Part shown: positions 4,465 through 13,122 of the stretch, one piece after another | How positions within the stretch are numbered: position 1 is the first letter of the stretch | How the letters are laid out: the number at the start of each line of letters is the position of its first letter | Virus record (IMG/VR): IMGVR_UViG_2802429247_000007 | Coordinates: 1-30,935 of that record | DNA length: 30,935 bases | Origin: a virus | Taxonomy: Duplodnaviria; Heunggongvirae; Uroviricota; Caudoviricetes | Reading direction: 5' to 3' (one strand) | The notes under the pieces: generated by a model | Databases searched by the model: none | Told to the model about the DNA's origin: nothing | What the model saw: only the letters and a program-made list of their open reading frames with translations | Program-made: the position numbers and the translations under genes

Positions 4465-4919
4465 TGTTTTTGGTTTTAACTGTTCCGCGTGCGCTCAGCC
4501 GCATTCACCACATCACAAAATTCACTTTAAAAAGGGCGGCAGAGCAGTCACGGAGTAAAACTGATACCGCCAAACGTCACCAGAAAATTGATAACAGAGG
4601 GCGTTGCAGCGGGGTTGTCACTTAAGCGTATGGTCAACCTGACAACCCGGTGTCCTCAACGGGGAAGGAATAACCCCGCCATACTTACCGCCGCGCCATT
4701 TCGCGGAGTGCCACAACCGGAAGCGCACGGTCGACGAAAATTTAACGACAGGCTATCTATGAACCAACTACCTCGCCGTGCGCTTTCGCGTTATGGTCTG
4801 ACTTTTCAGGGAAATATCCTTTCAGTAAACTGTCAGTGCCGGATGTTCACCCGTGTCCGGCGCACGCACTCCACCTCACCCGTGGAGAACTCCTTAATTA
4901 CCAACCCTCAGGAGGGTGA

Positions 4920-7768: not shown

Positions 7769-7839
7769 CTGACAATAGCCATATCGAATCGCTTCCGGCA
7801 ACTCGTGAGTAAAAAGATTCGGTATCAGAAGAGGTGAGT

Positions 7840-8934
7840 ATGGCTAACGCTTGGCTCAGATTATGGCATGACATGCCAAATGACCCTAAGTGGCGAACAA
7901 TTGCCAGGGTGTCAGGGCAGCCAATTGCAACAGTGATGGCAGTGTATATCCACCTCCTGGTGAGCGCGTCACGAAATGTCACGCGAGGTCACATTGATGT
8001 CACGACAGAAGATTTGGCAAGTGCGCTCGACGTGACAGAAGAGGTAATTGATTCAATTTTGCAGACGATGCAGGGGCGGGTACTTGATGGTGATTTAATC
8101 ACTGGATGGGAAAAACGCCAGGTGCTTAAAGAGGACAACGGCAATATTTCGCAAACCGCAAAATCTCCTGCAGAGCGCAAGAGGGCGCAGCGAGAGAGGG
8201 AAAGAAAGCGGGAACAAAATGGCGATTGTCACGGCGCGTCACGAAATGTCACGCACATGTCACGACGAGTCACGACAGATAAAGATACAGATAAAGATAC
8301 AGATAAAGATACAGATAAAGATACAGATCAAGAAGATCAAAACACTATGGTCCATGGCGTAAAAAACGCCACGAACCAGGCAGGGGATGTTCAGACCGTC
8401 AATCTTGGTCAGCCAGCAGGCACGACACCGGAAGCCGATTCAGCGTATGCGCTGAAAGCCGATTCGGGCGCTGTGCAGCAGGTGATGACCGCAAGGCCGG
8501 AGCAATCACACCAACTGCAGCAGCCTGAAGCCGATTCCGCCATTCAGCGGGAAGCCGATCGGGTAGTCCCGGAAAACACCGGGCAGCCTGTGGGACGAGT
8601 AGATTATCCGGATGTGTTCGAACAGGTCTGGCGGGAATACCCGTTGCGTGCTGGGGCAAACCCGAAGAAATCCGCTTTCAGTGCCTGGAAGGCCAGATTA
8701 CGCGAGGGGGTGCCACCAGAGGCCATGCTGGATGGTGTGAGGCGTTACGCAAGATACCTGGCGGCTACCGGGAAAACGGGAACGGAATTTGTTCAGCGAG
8801 CGACGACGTTTTTTGGACCGGACCGGAATTTTGAAAACCCCTGGTTGCTCCCGGTAAGCGGTACGAACAACCAGCGTTGTGTGAATCATATTTCTGAACC
8901 GGATACCGAAATTCCACTGGGCTTCAGGGGGTAA
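7840..8934 (+). CDS. Replication initiator (O-like / YdaU-like) with C-terminal DnaT-like domain; contains internal iterons and a (DKDT)4 repeat
   Basis: RBS agaagagg before ATG 7840; N-terminal region typical of phage replication proteins; C-terminal YPDVFEQVWREYPLRAG...FFGPDRNFENPWLL. Confidence 0.75.
   Translation: MANAWLRLWHDMPNDPKWRTIARVSGQPIATVMAVYIHLLVSASRNVTRGHIDVTTEDLASALDVTEEVIDSILQTMQGRVLDGDLITGWEKRQVLKEDNGNISQTAKSPAERKRAQRERERKREQNGDCHGASRNVTHMSRRVTTDKDTDKDTDKDTDKDTDQEDQNTMVHGVKNATNQAGDVQTVNLGQPAGTTPEADSAYALKADSGAVQQVMTARPEQSHQLQQPEADSAIQREADRVVPENTGQPVGRVDYPDVFEQVWREYPLRAGANPKKSAFSAWKARLREGVPPEAMLDGVRRYARYLAATGKTGTEFVQRATTFFGPDRNFENPWLLPVSGTNNQRCVNHISEPDTEIPLGFRG
7964..8004. repeat. 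Iteron-like cluster 1: four GTCAC(G/A) motifs at about 10-11-bp spacing
   Basis: gcgcGTCACGaaatGTCACGcgagGTCACAttgatGTCACG; 21-bp block gcgcgtcacgaaatgtcacgc recurs in cluster 2. Confidence 0.6.
8228..8275. repeat. Iteron-like cluster 2: five GTCACG motifs at about 10-11-bp spacing
   Basis: GTCACGgcgcGTCACGaaatGTCACGcacatGTCACGacgaGTCACG; helical-phase spacing. Confidence 0.6.
8278..8325. repeat. Perfect 12-bp tandem repeat (GATAAAGATACA)x4, in-frame, encoding (DKDT)4
   Basis: Read directly; A/T-rich and immediately downstream of iteron cluster 2. Confidence 0.9.
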
Positions 8935-8974: not shown

Positions 8975-9397
8975 GTGGCAAAAGTTTTTACACAAGAAGA
9001 GCGGGAAAAAATTAAAGGGCAGGTTCTTGAACTCGTACGCCAGAGTGGGCGCGAGACGTTACGACAACTGGAAGCTAAAACTGGGGCAACAAGATATCTG
9101 ATGAGCGTTCTGGCCAGAGAGCTGGTTGCCAGTGGCGATGTATACAACTCTGGTTACGGGTTATTCCCGTCTGAACAGGCGCGTAAGGACTGGCAAAATG
9201 CCCGTAAAAAGCTCTCAAGGGCAAAGCTGAAGAAACCATCTGCGGTTGATCCGGACCTTATCTGGTCATTACCTGATGGAGAAATACGTCGTTACGACAG
9301 GCGTCATAATATAATTTGTACTGAGTGTCGTAAAAGCGAAGTTATGCAGCGGATATTGTCGTTTTATCAGGGGGATGTTCGGTATTTTTTGAAGTGA
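8975..9397 (+). CDS. Hypothetical protein (140 aa), GTG start with strong RBS (aggagg)
   Basis: Occupies the position of the helicase loader (P/DnaC) but is too small and shows no such motif. Confidence 0.5.
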   Translation: MAKVFTQEEREKIKGQVLELVRQSGRETLRQLEAKTGATRYLMSVLARELVASGDVYNSGYGLFPSEQARKDWQNARKKLSRAKLKKPSAVDPDLIWSLPDGEIRRYDRRHNIICTECRKSEVMQRILSFYQGDVRYFLK

Positions 9398-9589
9398 CGA
9401 GATTAAAGTGCATTAGTTCAGATGTAAATTGACATTTTGTGGCACAGGGTAGAGCTAGCGTGGTTGTCCGCTTTGTGCCAGAAGCGGAAGTTGCTTACAT
9501 CGTGCTATGTTAGTTTAATGGGAGCAGGTAAAGGGGGGGATTCCCCAGTAATTCCCCATAGCTTCCCTACCAGGAAGGTAGGCATAAAA

Positions 9590-9620
9590 AACCAGCAATA
9601 ACAGGCTGGTTTATATAATC
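9590..9620 (-). terminator. Stem-loop (aaccagc/gctggtt, 7 bp) with flanking A and T runs; functions best as a minus-strand terminator just 3' of the tRNA fragment
   Basis: Hairpin read directly; T-run immediately follows the stem in minus orientation. Confidence 0.5.
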
Positions 9621-9624
9621 TTTT

Positions 9625-9673
9625 TGGTCGGCACGAGAGGATTTGAACTTCCGATCCCCGACACCCCATGACA
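9625..9673 (-). tRNA. Degenerate 3' fragment (about 48 nt) of a tRNA-Pro gene (anticodon loop through CCA); not a complete tRNA; att-site-like remnant
   Basis: Minus-strand sequence gtcatggggtgtcggggatcggaagttcaaatcctctcgtgccgacca matches the 3' half of E. coli tRNA-Pro(GGG) from memory with about 2 mismatches; the 5' half is absent. Confidence 0.6.
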
Positions 9674-9965
9674 CTGCTTGTAAAACGCTGAGAGCCGCGC
9701 TATTGCTGGTTAAAAGCACTATTCATATGTATAAACAAACAGTGCTTTTTCAACAAAATCTGCTCTATATACTTCAATGGCTTAAGTGGTGGTTTCTCCC
9801 CATGCTTGGTAGGTATAATACCTTGATGCTAAAGTAGGTTACTCACTTGAAGAAACAGCTAGTTAGTATCAATTATGTTGCTCCAGCTGACTGAAAAAAG
9901 TTATCAATGATGCATGGAACATACGCCCTTGAATTTTTCATTAGATTTTAGAAAAGGAATTGAGC

Positions 9966-10847
9966 ATGGGTTTAGCTGAGTGGTTTTGCGGATTTTGCTC
10001 CAATCTGACTGTAAAAGATGGTGGAACAATTTCAACTAGATATAGGAATATAACGAAGCGTTTAAATACGGATTTTTGGGATAGCAGTTCTGATACTTCT
10101 CATAGTCTCTACGTTGGATCATATGGTCGGAACACAGCTACGCAAGGCTTGAGCGATCTGGATATGATTTTTCAGCTACCATATTCCGAGTATCAAAAAT
10201 ACAATAGCTACTTAGGAAATGGGCAGTCAGCATTGCTTCAAGCGGTTAAGAGATCTATTGAAAAAACCTATGCTACCACTAGTATTAGAGGTGACGGTCA
10301 AGTGATCCTTGTACCGTTCAATGATGGAATTACATTTGAAGTCGTTCCAGCTTTCCTCAATGTTAGTGATAGTTACACATTTCCTGATGCGAACGGTGGT
10401 GGCCGTTGGAGGATTACAAATCCAAAGCCAGAAATTTCTGCAATGAGGTTAAGAAATAACATTACCAATAACAATTTGGTGCAACTTTGTAGAATGGCAA
10501 GAGCTTGGAAGCGTAAATGGGATGTACCTATAAGTGGTTTACTCATTGATACGCTTGCGTATCAATTCATTGAAAATTGGGCGCATAGAGATAAGTCGTA
10601 TCTTTACTACGATTTCATGAGTCGTGATTTCTTCAAATGGATGGCTGATCAAGATACGAGTAAGGAGTATTGGAAAGCGCCAGGAAGTGGTCAGTATGTC
10701 TATGGTAAAGGGCTTTTCCAATATAAAGCAAAACGGTGCTATAACATTTCACTCGAAGCTATAGAGCATGAAATGGCGACCCCAAAACGCGAATGGTCGG
10801 CTAAGCAAAAATGGCGGGAGATTTATGGATCAACATTTCCAGACTAA
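9966..10847 (+). CDS. SMODS-type (cGAS/DncV-like) nucleotidyltransferase, CBASS cyclase candidate
   Basis: Motif GSYGRNTATQGLSDLDMIF (GS-x9-DxD) plus downstream acidic [DE]hhP-like motif (NDGITFEVVP); RBS aaaaggaa before ATG 9966; AT-rich relative to flanking phage genes. Confidence 0.72.
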   Translation: MGLAEWFCGFCSNLTVKDGGTISTRYRNITKRLNTDFWDSSSDTSHSLYVGSYGRNTATQGLSDLDMIFQLPYSEYQKYNSYLGNGQSALLQAVKRSIEKTYATTSIRGDGQVILVPFNDGITFEVVPAFLNVSDSYTFPDANGGGRWRITNPKPEISAMRLRNNITNNNLVQLCRMARAWKRKWDVPISGLLIDTLAYQFIENWAHRDKSYLYYDFMSRDFFKWMADQDTSKEYWKAPGSGQYVYGKGLFQYKAKRCYNISLEAIEHEMATPKREWSAKQKWREIYGSTFPD

Positions 10848-11406
10848 GGATACACCTGAATCTAGAAGGGTTTTAGAAGGGCAGATCAGAGAGTGTTATG
10901 GTCGGGTCGTTTACTCACATAAGACGCATGAAAAATGCTCAGACATTCTCCTATCTCGACTATCTTCTATAAAGTTTTGGCAAATAATTCTCTCCGCCTT
11001 AACTACTGGAGGCTTTCTAGCAACTTTTTTCGGCGCGGGTGAAGTAGGCACGGGGGTTGGGATTGTTGTTTCAACACTGCTTCTCATTCTTAACGCTTAT
11101 ACCAAAGATTATGACCTTGGTGAGTTGGCGCAAAAACATAAGCAGGCTGCAAATGAGATCTGGTTAATCCGAGAAAAGTATTTATCATTGCTTACAGACT
11201 TAGCAATGGGTGAAAAACCAATCGAGCAATTGCAGTCAGAGCGGGATTCGTTACTCGAGAGTTTACATTCAGTGTATTCAGGCTCTCCTAGTACAACATT
11301 TGAAGCTTATAAAAAAGCACAGGACGCATTAAAAAACAAAGAAGATTTAACATTTTCTGAAGAAGAAATAGATGCTTTTCTTCCCAAGGAACTGAAAAGA
11401 AGATAA
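10825..11406 (+). CDS. SLATT-like two-transmembrane effector
   Basis: Start overlaps the end of the upstream gene by 23 nt; two hydrophobic helices (IKFWQIILSALTTGGFLATFF and GTGVGIVVSTLLLILNAY) followed by a charged helical tail. Confidence 0.7.
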   Translation: MDQHFQTKDTPESRRVLEGQIRECYGRVVYSHKTHEKCSDILLSRLSSIKFWQIILSALTTGGFLATFFGAGEVGTGVGIVVSTLLLILNAYTKDYDLGELAQKHKQAANEIWLIREKYLSLLTDLAMGEKPIEQLQSERDSLLESLHSVYSGSPSTTFEAYKKAQDALKNKEDLTFSEEEIDAFLPKELKRR

Positions 11407-11417
11407 ATATGTTGCGA

Positions 11418-11450
11418 GGGCAAATATAAATATTTGCCCCTATTTTTTTA
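11418..11450 (+). terminator. Intrinsic terminator: perfect 9-bp stem (gggcaaata/tatttgccc) followed by a T-run
   Basis: Read directly; 12 nt after the SLATT stop. Confidence 0.7.
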
Positions 11451-11547
11451 TTTGTTAATATTAATTTTAGCAGGGCTAACTTTCCGGTAAGAATTAATTA
11501 CTGGTCATATGCTCCTTGGTTAATAAAATTCTATGCCTTACTTGGTG

Positions 11548-11931
11548 CTAGCTGGCTTTAATTTCTCCATGTGGAACTACAACCCAGTCGATATGGTTTT
11601 GCGTGTAGATTTTAGTTGATTTCGCATCGCTGTGTGCCATTCGTCCTTGTGGATCGATGCCCTGCTGATCAAAAAGATGTGCTGCTAAGGCGCGAATTTC
11701 GTGAAAGGTTGGCCTTTCATCCATCGGCCGTTTGTCATATAAACCCAGCTTGTCACGCGTAGCTGAAAACGACCGACTCAAATAGTCTGGTGCAACTTGA
11801 GTGGGATGAGAAACTTCTTTGCTGCGTTTAACCTGCCGTTCCGGGATCTGGTGAACGATAAATGGGCTGGCCACGTTATTGCGACTTTCATCAATGATCC
11901 GCTTCAATTCGTCACCAATCGGTGACCGCTA
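11548..11931 (-). pseudogene. Truncated tyrosine integrase (C-terminal catalytic fragment only, about 125 codons; in-frame stop at 11929-11931 upstream)
   Basis: Fragment ...TFHEIRALAAHLFDQQGIDPQGRMAHSDAKSTKIYTQ aligns with the C-terminus of the intact int at 1..1119 and of lambda Int; no N-terminal or core-binding region. Confidence 0.78.
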
Positions 11932-12101
11932 CATGACGGGAACGCTTACAATCTATTAATGTCTACTAAGTGCTAGGAGCGGACATTGGTTAATGGGGAT
12001 ATGTCATTCGCCTGGGGCAGATCAAGAAAGTAAAAATCCCAGCTGTCGATAATTGGAATCCATGATAAGGTTTACGGGTAACTGATTGATAAATAAATTG
12101 A

Positions 12102-12352: not shown

Positions 12353-12966
12353 CGTAATCTAGTAAAATCGTCGGTTTTTAATCAATTAATTAACTCATCT
12401 ATTACCAACTCCTGGTTGGTTGCTAATGATGTCATAGTGTCGCTAACGGCCTGAATTACTCAGTCCGTTCTTCGCTCAAAGCGGGCTAGAAGGTTAGCTT
12501 GCGTCGGACTTGGCGTATTTAAAGAAGTGCTGGTGGTGACAGGTTATTATGTTCCATTTCTACAGAACAAAATCACAGAAACTATACCCAATAGTTGTAT
12601 TGAATCACTGACGAGACAGCCTCATATTTATCAGGACTGGTGTACGTCCAATACAGGAGGTTGTGGTGCTGGTTCTCAAATGTGCGCTGGCTATTGCTGC
12701 TGTAATGGCAATTTATTGCCTTGCTGTTGTTCTTATGGATCGCCTTTCTGACTGATTTCATATTGGCGAGGTAACGGGAGTTAAGTAGAATGGCTGCGGG
12801 TGCTTGAGGCTATCTGTCTCAGGCATGAACACCAAAGGCAGATAGAGAAAAGCCCCAGTTAACATTACGCGTCCTGCAAGACGCTTAACATTAATCTGAG
12901 GCTCAATCTATGCTGAACACATGTAGGTTAGCCTCTTACGTGCCGAAAGGCAAGGAGAAGCAGGCT

Positions 12967-13122
12967 ATGAAGCAGCAAAAGGCGATGCTAATCGCCCTGA
13001 TCGTCATCTGTTTAACCGTCATAGTGACGGCACTGGTAACGAGGAAAGACCTCTGCGAGGTACGAATCCGAACCGGCCAGACGGAGGTCGCTGTCTTCAC
13101 AGCTTACGAACCTGAGGAGTAA
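12967..13122 (+). CDS. hok: Hok/Gef-family type I toxin (51 aa); in-frame upstream extension from 12910 is Mok-like
   Basis: MKQQKAMLIALIVICLTVIVTALVTRKDLCEVRIRTGQTEVAVFTAYEPEE is a canonical Hok-family sequence (recalled as RelF/HokD-like); upstream leader resembles the hok mRNA 5' elements. Confidence 0.88.
   Translation: MKQQKAMLIALIVICLTVIVTALVTRKDLCEVRIRTGQTEVAVFTAYEPEE

Follow-up and report, generated by a model that had tools for sequence, protein, structure and literature searches.

SLATT4 and SLATT6 are both listed among the membrane effectors of CBASS (PMC12480259). Against phages from five viral families, the operon EcCdnF04-SLATT6 gave restriction of at least 10,000-fold, and activity against phages was also seen for its relative EcCdnF05-SLATT6 (Richmond-Buccola et al., bioRxiv 10.1101/2023.05.21.541620). 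In a Type I CBASS encoded on a lactococcal plasmid (pUCCL631_167/168), the SLATT effector is listed as PF18186 (PMC11381338).

The window, that is, the whole 30,935-nt stretch of DNA analysed here, carries a cassette of two genes with the following features.

9954-9959, plus strand: ribosome-binding site AAGGAA of the cyclase gene, read from the sequence, 6 nt before the ATG at 9966
9966..10847, plus strand: CD-NTase (SMODS) signalling nucleotidyltransferase gene, 293 aa, ATG at 9966, stop at 10847
10816-10820, plus strand: ribosome-binding site GGGAG of the effector gene, read from the sequence, 4 nt before the ATG at 10825
10825..11406, plus strand: SLATT_4 two-transmembrane effector gene, 193 aa, ATG at 10825, stop at 11406
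11418..11449, plus strand: intrinsic terminator closing the two-gene operon, a GC-containing hairpin with a T-run, found by the terminator scan

We consider it very probable that this cassette is a minimal Type I CBASS, a moron in the tRNA-Pro att/integrase cargo slot of a temperate phage, which now lies as a remnant in a Qin-like E. coli prophage. Like the EcCdnF04- and EcCdnF05-SLATT6 operons, it lacks ancillary Cap genes and consists of two genes, for a small CD-NTase and a SLATT 2TM protein, in an E. coli host. Compared by description rather than by sequence, those operons carry SLATT_6 (PF18169), whereas the window carries SLATT_4 (PF18186), encoded downstream rather than upstream of the cyclase. 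The lactococcal system likewise has a PF18186 (SLATT_4) effector beside its CD-NTase, of 190 aa against 193 aa here, but its cyclase is a 408-aa AGS-C fusion with CdnB (7LJO) as the top HHpred structure, whereas the cyclase of the window is a bare 293 aa and has CdnD as its nearest solved relative. The cassette is thus an already catalogued Type I CBASS subtype with a SLATT4-class effector and not a new one, because the pair is annotated in public genomes, SLATT4 and SLATT6 are recognised CBASS classes, and cyclase-SLATT6 operons defend E. coli. Both proteins are annotated by NCBI, and both are matched end to end by standard defence-finder HMMs. A literature search by accession found no paper naming the two RefSeq accessions of the pair, nor any experiment on precisely these two genes. 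With the subtype in the literature, the discovery value is small; the locus offers a neat, small E. coli case in which to ask how SLATT effectors, for which neither a known ligand-binding domain nor a solved structure exists, receive the CBASS signal.

The cyclase matched Pfam SMODS (PF18144) over profile positions 1-164 of 164 (E 2.1e-50, 171.6 bits, cut-off 26.5), and its best PADLOC model was the CBASS cyclase PDLC00786, matched over 1-292 of 293 (E 4.6e-144, 477 bits). Its catalytic motif, GSYGRNTATQGLSDLDMIF, contains G51-S52 and D64-x-D66, and these residues (G51, S52, D64 and D66) were invariant in an alignment of 53 cyclase homologues. The third acidic residue is E125, within ITFEVVPAF; in alignment it lies opposite the third catalytic Asp of Pseudomonas aeruginosa CdnD. 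Position 125 was Gln in three homologues and Asp in one; the catalytic role of E125 is not certain, because Gln stands there in those three. Conservation extended over the whole length of the protein. The original prediction of a SMODS-type nucleotidyltransferase with GS...DxD and a downstream acidic motif agrees with the profile matches and with E125. Judged from its sequence, ORF 9966-10847 is a full-length SMODS/CD-NTase with intact catalytic residues and is predicted to synthesise a nucleotide.

An identity as an antibiotic-resistance or MNT-type nucleotidyltransferase was rejected, as its sole trace was a negligible match to Pfam NTP_transf_2 (E 0.007), and profile searches of Pfam and NCBIfam returned no antibiotic-resistance nucleotidyltransferase family at the reporting threshold. 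The cyclase did not reach the cut-offs of the NCBIfam equivalogs for 'CBASS oligonucleotide cyclase', scoring 116.9 bits against 200 for NF041117 and 28.6 bits against 200 for NF041116, and for this reason the PGAP label is merely 'SMODS domain-containing nucleotidyltransferase'. Being equivalog-type models, these two presumably cover other cyclase subfamilies.

When the PDB was searched with the profile of the cyclase family, only CD-NTases were returned, namely CdnD, the E. cloacae cAAG synthase and CdnE; the top match was P. aeruginosa CdnD (6p8u, E 1.5e-15). By sequence, no solved structure is closer than CdnD (PDB 6P82/6P8U), which aligned end to end (profile 3-292, chain residues 4-298) and kept GS, DxD and the third acid in register, at a low similarity: the single-sequence E-value was only 7e-9, and the profile alignment contained several gaps. 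It belongs to Type III (HORMA/Trip13) CBASS and differs in having HORMA and Trip13 partners as regulators, which the cassette lacks, and in having Asp as the third catalytic residue, where the cyclase of the window has Glu. The AF2 model of the cyclase, made from a shallow alignment, was poor (pLDDT 63) and confident in the N-lobe only. Foldseek with this weak model ranked CdnD, CdnC, CdnE, CdnG and CdnB first, with TM scores of only 0.35-0.40. The full-length profile alignment to CdnD supports a bilobed cGAS/DncV-like fold indirectly. With regard to the clade, the solved neighbours are of clade D, and relatives of the cyclase pair with SLATT6, like the published clade F operons of E. coli. 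A protease-cleaved activation loop (cf. PMC12991175) is unlikely, as the family alignment has 294 columns per 293 residues and contains no indel-rich loop.

The effector matched Pfam SLATT_4 (PF18186) over profile positions 1-165 of 165 (E 4.4e-74, 248.1 bits, cut-off 27), NCBIfam SLATT_4 (NF033632) with 150.7 bits against a cut-off of 55, and the PADLOC model CBASS Effector 2TM (PDLC00696) with E 9.9e-85. Since both proteins were matched along their entire length, with profile E-values between 1e-50 and 1e-144, the matches of the cassette are not due to chance. Hydropathy showed two hydrophobic helices at about residues 50-70 and 74-94 with a loop of 3-6 residues between them, and the AF2 model (pLDDT 94.3) was all-helical with a transmembrane hairpin (helices 11-68 and 72-95 at pLDDT above 90) and, after it, a C-terminal part made of charged helices. 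The SLATT-like protein with two transmembrane helices and a charged helical tail that had been proposed from the letters was therefore recovered by hydropathy, by structure prediction and by the PF18186 and PDLC00696 matches. By the positive-inside rule, both termini would be cytoplasmic. Conservation was concentrated in the cytoplasmic helical bundle, which consists of the N-terminal helix 11-49 and helices 98-185, where H105, R116, E117, D125, R140, P155 and Y162 were near-invariant. The earlier view that the effector contains no nucleotide-sensing domain holds for known domains, among which no nucleotide-binding domain was recognisable; it overlooks this conserved bundle, the obvious candidate sensor. 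Taken together, the Pfam searches gave the SMODS and SLATT assignments expected from the outset, and neither a non-signalling nucleotidyltransferase family for the first protein nor an unrelated membrane family for the second. These end-to-end matches to a CBASS cyclase and a 2TM effector also support the cyclase-plus-membrane-effector module of the original prediction.

The effector ORF overlaps the cyclase ORF by 23 nt, an overlap that had been noticed before, and each gene has its own ribosome-binding site. The terminator reads GGGCAAATAT-AA-ATATTTGCCC, which by eye is a stem of 10 bp, perfect as described earlier; the terminator scan gave it 9 pairs around a 4-nt loop (11418-11439) with CTATTTTTTT behind, and found it to be the sole such site on both strands between 9300 and 12000. 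Rfam assigned nothing to the cassette; a weak match to the L20 leader at 11354-11451 (E 0.74) was rejected as being the terminator hairpin. GC content was 0.37-0.41 across 9500-11500 and 0.45-0.54 on either side, in line with the AT-richness claimed for the pair. No CBASS-model match to Cap2/Cap3 (E1/E2/JAB), HORMA/TRIP13 or other signature Cap genes was found in the flanking ORFs (the DUF977 protein, replication protein, integrase fragment, 65-aa ORF and HokD), and we classify the cassette as a minimal Type I CBASS because its flanks contain no ancillary Cap genes.

The mechanism that we propose for this Type I CBASS takes the defence phenotype, the nucleotide, its binding by the bundle and pore formation from the CBASS literature. 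The 293-aa CD-NTase would be made constitutively and kept inactive until infection by another phage provides some cue that switches it on. Its active site (GS, D64xD66 and E125) would then produce a cyclic di- or oligonucleotide, which may act on the cytoplasmic bundle, formed by the N-terminal and C-terminal helices, of the co-translated SLATT_4 effector. This step from signal to effector is purely what we infer, because the effector has no recognisable nucleotide-binding domain or solved structural relative. The transmembrane hairpin would oligomerise and breach the inner membrane, and the infected cell would die or arrest before phage progeny are released, that is, abortive infection.

A predicted nucleotide signal leading to disruption of the inner membrane is also what likens the cassette to the Cap15 beta-barrel TM protein, the Cap14 SAVED-TM channel and S-4TM (Duncan-Lowey et al. 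2021; Tak et al. 2023, PMC10402079). Cap14 and Cap15 reportedly have recognisable soluble ligand-binding domains (SAVED and beta-barrel, respectively), whereas SLATT_4 consists of helices only and no solved structural relative of it was found. RT-SLATT systems (retron or DRT-type) share the effector superfamily, and the effector of the window gave a weak match to PADLOC RTasSLATT (E 0.008) and a weak match to Pfam SLATT_5; they differ in their SLATT subfamily and in having a reverse transcriptase take the place of the nucleotide cyclase as upstream sensor. It is possible, although we hold this only tentatively, that the SLATT_4 bundle represents a new class of cyclic-oligonucleotide receptor and that the compact cyclase senses infection by an undescribed mechanism. 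Such a bundle would be unrelated to SAVED, STING, CARF or the Cap15 beta-barrel, and the 293-aa cyclase would operate with no protease-sensitive activation loop. If this were true, the identity of 59-86% at which the pair occurs across many phyla would reflect an unusually constrained, universally portable pair of sensor and receptor.

Of 80 related loci from many phyla, 70 had a SLATT_4 gene immediately downstream of the cyclase, a SLATT_4 homologue was detectable in 73, and most repeated the short overlap between cyclase and effector. This conserved translational coupling would also fit a physical complex, in which the nucleotidyltransferase gates or releases the SLATT_4 pore by contact or nucleotidylylation in the manner of a toxin-antitoxin pair, with no diffusible nucleotide, and so would the effector's lack of a known nucleotide-binding domain and the unusual whole-length conservation of both proteins (79% mean column identity for the cyclase), as expected of an extensive interaction surface. 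Partner choice is difficult to reconcile with such a complex. Cyclases about 75% identical to that of the window are paired instead with a SLATT_6 effector encoded upstream, on the opposite side of the gene, and at loci L013-L016 the cyclases stand beside SLATT_4 proteins only 38% identical to the effector of the window, which is hard to square with a tightly co-evolved contact. Effector swapping is a hallmark of CBASS and argues for a transferable signal. The invariance of the catalytic GS and DxD residues also speaks against a purely physical role, and all characterised CBASS systems are known to signal via nucleotides. We therefore regard the complex as quite unlikely. A distant BLASTN search of 5,426 complete E. 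coli genomes for a close SLATT6-paired relative found none at the DNA level and returned only the same 47 genomes that carry the pair itself.

Those 47 of 5,426 complete E. coli genomes have the same gene pair annotated; strain 2013C-4991 is one natural carrier. The cassette was absent from cultured phage genomes (INPHARED), save for two Listeria phages with a cyclase of 44% identity. In the E. coli prophage, its neighbours are replication-region genes on one side (the DUF977 gene, 8975-9397) and a block of hok/sok, DUF968, RusA and the Q antiterminator on the other, which corresponds to the nin region of a lambdoid prophage. The proximity of hok/sok, another post-segregational killer, and the possibility of holin-like action by a membrane-active two-TM protein could suggest that the pair serves mainly as an addiction or stabilisation module of the prophage, or as a device for lysis or the timing of superinfection, rather than as defence against unrelated phages. 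This seems extremely unlikely to us: outside prophages, the same pair is found in many chromosomal settings across phyla, it has no antitoxin-like component, and the family has been catalogued and tested as anti-phage defence.

The original prediction of a moron in the nin region was correct in its position, which is only a part of the story, since the att-int end of a different, tRNA-Pro-integrating prophage brought the pair in as its cargo. The remains of that end are the following.

9584..9620, no strand assigned: short flank with a hairpin (stem 9589-9595 / 9604-9610), read from the sequence
9621..9672, minus strand: the 3' 52 nt of a tRNA-Pro, with no 5' half, 96.2% identical by BLAST to the annotated chromosomal tRNA-Pro of thousands of E. 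coli genomes
9673..9807, no strand assigned: conserved phage arm next to att, common to tRNA-Pro-integrating prophages whatever their cargo
11548..11922, minus strand: last 124 codons (C-terminal) of a tyrosine integrase that has lost its N-terminal ~268 codons, marking the other end of the remnant

ARAGORN found no complete tRNA in the window, and only BLAST against E. coli genomes revealed the tRNA-Pro piece, which is thus a fragment and not a gene. The segment 9621-9672 is the remnant of an att site and not a functional tRNA; the tRNA-Pro gene is probably proL, going by the proL sequence and by the narP-yejO neighbourhood, not by annotation. The block of hairpin flank, tRNA-Pro fragment and phage arm was 82% identical to the locus of E. 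coli LD91-1 (L003) over window positions 9586-9803 and 78% identical to that of Enterobacter RIT637 (L005) over 9584-9807, and the alignment to another locus (L089) was 92% identical from 9624 onwards. At the other end, residues 269-392 of the LD91-1 integrase matched window positions 11922-11551 at 89.5% (tblastn). The fragment gave a partial match to Pfam Phage_integrase and is annotated by PGAP as 'recombinase, incomplete, missing N-terminus'. It was found at a coverage of at least 80% in 47 E. coli genomes, a number equal to that of the cassette carriers, and adjoined the cassette in every full-length match among those listed. The intK pseudogene of K-12 Qin was considered as its counterpart and rejected, as there was no DNA or protein similarity. 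We conclude that a different prophage, one that integrates at tRNA-Pro, left its att-int end as the remnant 9584-11947 within a Qin-like E. coli prophage.

In such a setting, with the integrase cut to its last 124 codons and the tRNA reduced to 52 nt, the cassette could be a silent or decaying passenger of a dead prophage end, contributing nothing to the present host or prophage. A consensus scan of the plus strand directly upstream of the cassette found no convincing sigma-70 site that would serve as a dedicated promoter, and IS1203 was inserted in the cyclase gene of one of the 47 E. coli carriers. The ORFs themselves speak against decay: of the 30 carriers listed (47 in total), all but 2 had both of them intact, with an identity of at least 99.8%. 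The intact ribosome-binding sites and terminator speak against it too. The dN/dS values were 0.07-0.10 for the cyclase and lay within 0.055-0.097 for both genes, indicating that both are under strong purifying selection in the family. About 65 bp upstream of the cassette were also conserved with the Pectobacterium copy, the alignment of the window starting at 9899. We thus consider a silent passenger very unlikely, and the preferred reading remains a Type I CBASS carried as cargo.

Enterobacter RIT637 and a viral contig apparently from Citrobacter had the same cassette between att (tRNA-Pro) and a full-length integrase, and in a sister prophage the att-int slot held an unrelated, uncharacterised gene. 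In E. coli LD91-1 this slot is occupied by a gene for 289 aa. The locus illustrates how temperate phages that integrate at tRNA-Pro carry a defence cassette about as the cargo of their att-int slot, and how the end of one prophage, defence system included, was captured inside another. The hairpin flank at 9584-9620 occupies the place of the chromosomal terminator found downstream of tRNA-Pro in intact loci, and an analogous hairpin adjoins the tRNA-Pro fragment in both LD91-1 and RIT637.

The cassette consists of two overlapping genes, which the original prediction had read as a SMODS nucleotidyltransferase and a SLATT effector with their own translation signals and terminator. Its ORF positions, ribosome-binding sites and hairpin were all recovered, as follows.

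9966–10847, plus strand: ORF1, the cyclase, from ATG to stop (293 aa, read from the sequence)
10825–11406, plus strand: ORF2, the effector, from ATG to stop (193 aa; 23 nt shared with ORF1)
9954–9959, plus strand: ribosome-binding site of ORF1, AAGGAA, visible in the sequence
10816–10820, plus strand: ribosome-binding site of ORF2, GGGAG, visible in the sequence
11418–11439, plus strand: terminator hairpin, followed by CTATTTTTTT (terminator scan)

The hairpin was the sole terminator-like site on both strands between 9300 and 12000, and a consensus scan found no convincing sigma-70 promoter directly upstream of the cassette. The GC content was 0.37–0.41 over 9500–11500, compared with 0.45–0.54 in both flanks, in line with the AT-richness originally claimed. 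None of the ORFs flanking the cassette matched CBASS (cyclic-oligonucleotide-based anti-phage signalling system) ancillary proteins; thus, lacking Cap genes, the cassette is a Type I system.

ORF1 matched the whole Pfam SMODS model (PF18144; E 2.1e-50, 171.6 bits against a cut-off of 26.5) and, end to end, the PADLOC CBASS oligonucleotide-cyclase model PDLC00786 (E 4.6e-144); its match to the generic NTP_transf_2 was negligible (E 0.007). It stayed below the cut-offs of the NCBIfam 'CBASS oligonucleotide cyclase' equivalogs (116.9 bits versus 200), which is why its PGAP name is merely 'SMODS domain-containing nucleotidyltransferase'. ORF2 covered 165 of 165 positions of Pfam SLATT_4 (PF18186; E 4.4e-74) and also matched NCBIfam SLATT_4 (150.7 bits, cut-off 55) and the PADLOC CBASS '2TM' effector model PDLC00696 (E 9.9e-85). 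Profile searches had been proposed as the refutation test for both proteins, and these matches therefore favour the original interpretation: the SMODS plus SLATT reading as CBASS was real and correct.

The active site was assessed in an alignment of 53 cyclase homologues from many phyla (59–86% identity to the window protein; mean column identity 79%). G51, S52, D64 and D66 were invariant in all 53. E125 (ITFEVVPAF) aligned with the third catalytic Asp of Pseudomonas aeruginosa CdnD (VSVDAVPAF); this position was mostly Glu, with Gln in three comparison loci (L057, L060, L063) and Asp in one (L076). The Gln-125 subclade is small, comprising a Planctomycetota MAG, a Cyanobium genome and a Synechococcaceae MAG; its members otherwise kept the GS/DxD motif along with the effector gene. 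Either the site may be dispensable or those copies may be catalytically altered.

When the 53-homologue profile was searched against the PDB, only CD-NTases were retrieved: P. aeruginosa CdnD was best (6p8u/6p82; E 1.5e-15, end to end), and the others were Cap10-associated CdnD, the E. cloacae cAAG synthase and CdnE enzymes. With a shallow alignment as its input, AlphaFold2 modelled the cyclase poorly (pLDDT 63); a Foldseek search with this model still placed CdnD, CdnC, CdnE, CdnG and CdnB on top, with low TM scores. Support for the fold thus comes from sequence and not from the model. At 294 columns for 293 residues, the family alignment shows no indel-rich surface loop like the one found to serve as a protease tripwire in clades A and G and in part of clade D (PMC12991175). 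As to clade, the nearest solved enzymes belong to clade D, and close relatives pair with SLATT6, like the published clade F operons of E. coli.

AlphaFold2 gave a confident, all-helical effector model (pLDDT 94.3, pTM 0.88) from an alignment of 83 sequences with representatives at 34–61% identity. A long helix (11–68), hydrophobic in its last third (about 50–70), is followed by a tight turn (GAGEVG), a second hydrophobic helix (72–95) and four more helices reaching residue 185. Both soluble parts are predicted to be cytoplasmic by the positive-inside rule. In the 83-sequence alignment the membrane hairpin was poorly conserved; the N-terminal helix was highly conserved (R22, YGRVVY, HEK), and H105, R116, E117, D125, R140, P155, Y162, E181 and L186-P187 in the C-terminal helices were at least 90% conserved. 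The earlier remark that the effector has no recognisable nucleotide-sensing domain holds for known domains; the conserved cytoplasmic helical bundle would be the natural candidate receptor for the signal. Our literature search found no paper explaining the activation of any SLATT effector, and this unsolved question of the signal receptor is one part of the remaining interest of the cassette.

In public data, at least 1,000 contigs carry the exact cyclase protein and at least 1,000 the exact effector protein. In a one-genome-per-species scan, 80 loci encoded a cyclase at 59–86% identity; they span Enterobacterales, other Proteobacteria, Planctomycetota, Chloroflexota, Bacteroidota, Nitrospirota, Cyanobacteria, Poribacteria, Gemmatimonadota, Actinomycetota and others. 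A SLATT_4 gene lay directly 3' of the cyclase in 70 of the 80, mostly with the same short overlap; three more had a SLATT_4 homologue on the upstream side or at a distance above 1 kb (73/80 altogether). The pairing is also swappable. In L013–L016, the cyclase was 77% identical and the neighbouring SLATT_4 protein just 38%; in two loci from Limnohabitans and betaproteobacterial relatives, a SLATT_6 effector (PF18169; PADLOC 2TM PDLC00695; L026 5304–5909, L028 5255–5884) lay upstream of a 75%-identical cyclase in place of the downstream SLATT_4, a clear effector swap. Such shuffling is typical of CBASS. It speaks for a transferable signal rather than for fixed contact between the proteins; gating of the effector by contact, without a diffusible signal, accordingly has a low probability.

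The dN/dS values of the window genes against the Pectobacterium and Enterobacter copies were 0.055–0.097, indicating purifying selection; in more distant pairs, synonymous sites were saturated. It is improbable that the cassette is a silent passenger, and an addiction or lysis role is likewise of low probability. With synonymous sites saturated, the pair in L004–L083 keeps 59–86% amino acid identity over many bacterial phyla. For a defence module, its conservation is unusually strong and its horizontal spread wide.

Among the explanations, a Type I CBASS abortive-infection module has the best support. An infection cue would switch on the cyclase, which would make a cyclic oligonucleotide; this signal would be sensed, probably by the cytoplasmic helical bundle of the effector, whose transmembrane hairpins would then assemble, presumably as a pore, and cause membrane failure, thereby conferring defence. 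Membrane proteins, 'SLATT4' and 'SLATT6' among them, are listed as the commonest class of CBASS effector (PMC12480259), and the most frequent pairing in Type I operons is that of a cyclase from clade D, E or F with a 2- or 4-TM effector (10.1101/2023.05.21.541620). In E. coli, EcCdnF04-SLATT6 gave at least 10,000-fold restriction of phages from five viral families, and the related operon EcCdnF05-SLATT6 was likewise active (10.1101/2023.05.21.541620). The effector of a lactococcal plasmid Type I CBASS is a PF18186 SLATT (PMC11381338), the same family as the window effector. We found no literature mention of the accession numbers of the pair.

The cassette was present in 47 of 5,426 complete E. 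coli genomes (0.9%), always chromosomal, and the copies were almost always at least 99.8% identical among the matches listed. Seven IMG/VR prophage contigs carried it, and no cultured phage genome in INPHARED did. In one of the 47 carriers (NZ_CP045827.1, E. coli AUSMDU00014361), IS1203 lies within the cyclase gene and the effector gene is intact, making this copy a natural cyclase knockout. The locus is annotated in E. coli as 'SMODS domain-containing nucleotidyltransferase | SLATT domain-containing protein | recombinase'. The cassette thus belongs to a kind already known and annotated, and its interest is therefore low. The other part of the remaining interest is its setting in an att-int cargo slot, the position between a tRNA-Pro att fragment and the integrase.

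The window is a Qin-like lambdoid prophage, with the following landmarks.

about 16–1119: the prophage's own integrase
4534–4585, minus strand: DicF sRNA, a Qin/Kim-family marker
9621–9672, minus strand: tRNA-Pro 3' fragment (52 nt); thousands of E. coli genomes have the chromosomal gene at 96% identity
11548–11922, minus strand: C-terminus of a tyrosine integrase (last 124 of 392 aa, encoded by 11551–11922), the other flank of the cassette
12798–12972, plus strand: sok antisense RNA, type I toxin-antitoxin with hokD
12910–13122, plus strand: hokD toxin gene, a Qin/Kim-family marker

DicF and sok/hokD mark the element as a Qin/Kim-family prophage. Upstream of the cassette are cro/YdaT, the replication protein and a DUF977 gene, and downstream are DUF968, RusA and the Q antiterminator. 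The cassette itself is bracketed by the tRNA-Pro fragment, whose chromosomal counterpart we take to be proL from its sequence and the observed narP-yejO neighbourhood, and by the integrase end. In E. coli LD91-1, a prophage beside yejO and narP, presumably inserted at proL, has the order chromosomal terminator, tRNA-Pro 3' fragment, conserved arm of about 130 bp, cargo and full integrase; its cargo is an unrelated 289-aa gene. Enterobacter sp. RIT637 and the viral contig L089 showed the same order with the CBASS pair as cargo (78% and 92% nucleotide identity, respectively). L089 begins precisely at the att fragment and appears to derive from Citrobacter braakii (cyclase identity 96%). The flanking fragments and these three intact loci together identify 9584–11947 as the att-int end of a temperate phage that integrates at tRNA-Pro; it has CBASS in its cargo slot, and has been truncated and embedded in the Qin-like prophage. 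The 'nin-like region' of the original prediction was therefore right by position, but the close flanks are the att-int end of another prophage. The integrase fragment was matched at full coverage in as many E. coli genomes as carry the cassette (47), and it adjoined the cassette in every full-length match listed.

The K-12 Qin intK pseudogene was considered as the counterpart of this fragment and rejected by comparison with K-12 Qin. The LD91-1 slot gene (L003 7915–8784, WP_024242783.1) is AT-rich and matched nothing in Pfam or PADLOC; this makes it a candidate for an uncharacterised defence moron, which could be more novel than the cassette. The sok/hokD system lies about 1.4 kb downstream of the cassette. 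Within the replication-protein ORF (7834–8934), tandem repeats at 8227–8333 (ACAGATAAAGAT x 4.9), preceded by 10–11-nt repeats, encode DKDT repeats and resemble an iteron/origin array within a lambda O-like gene.
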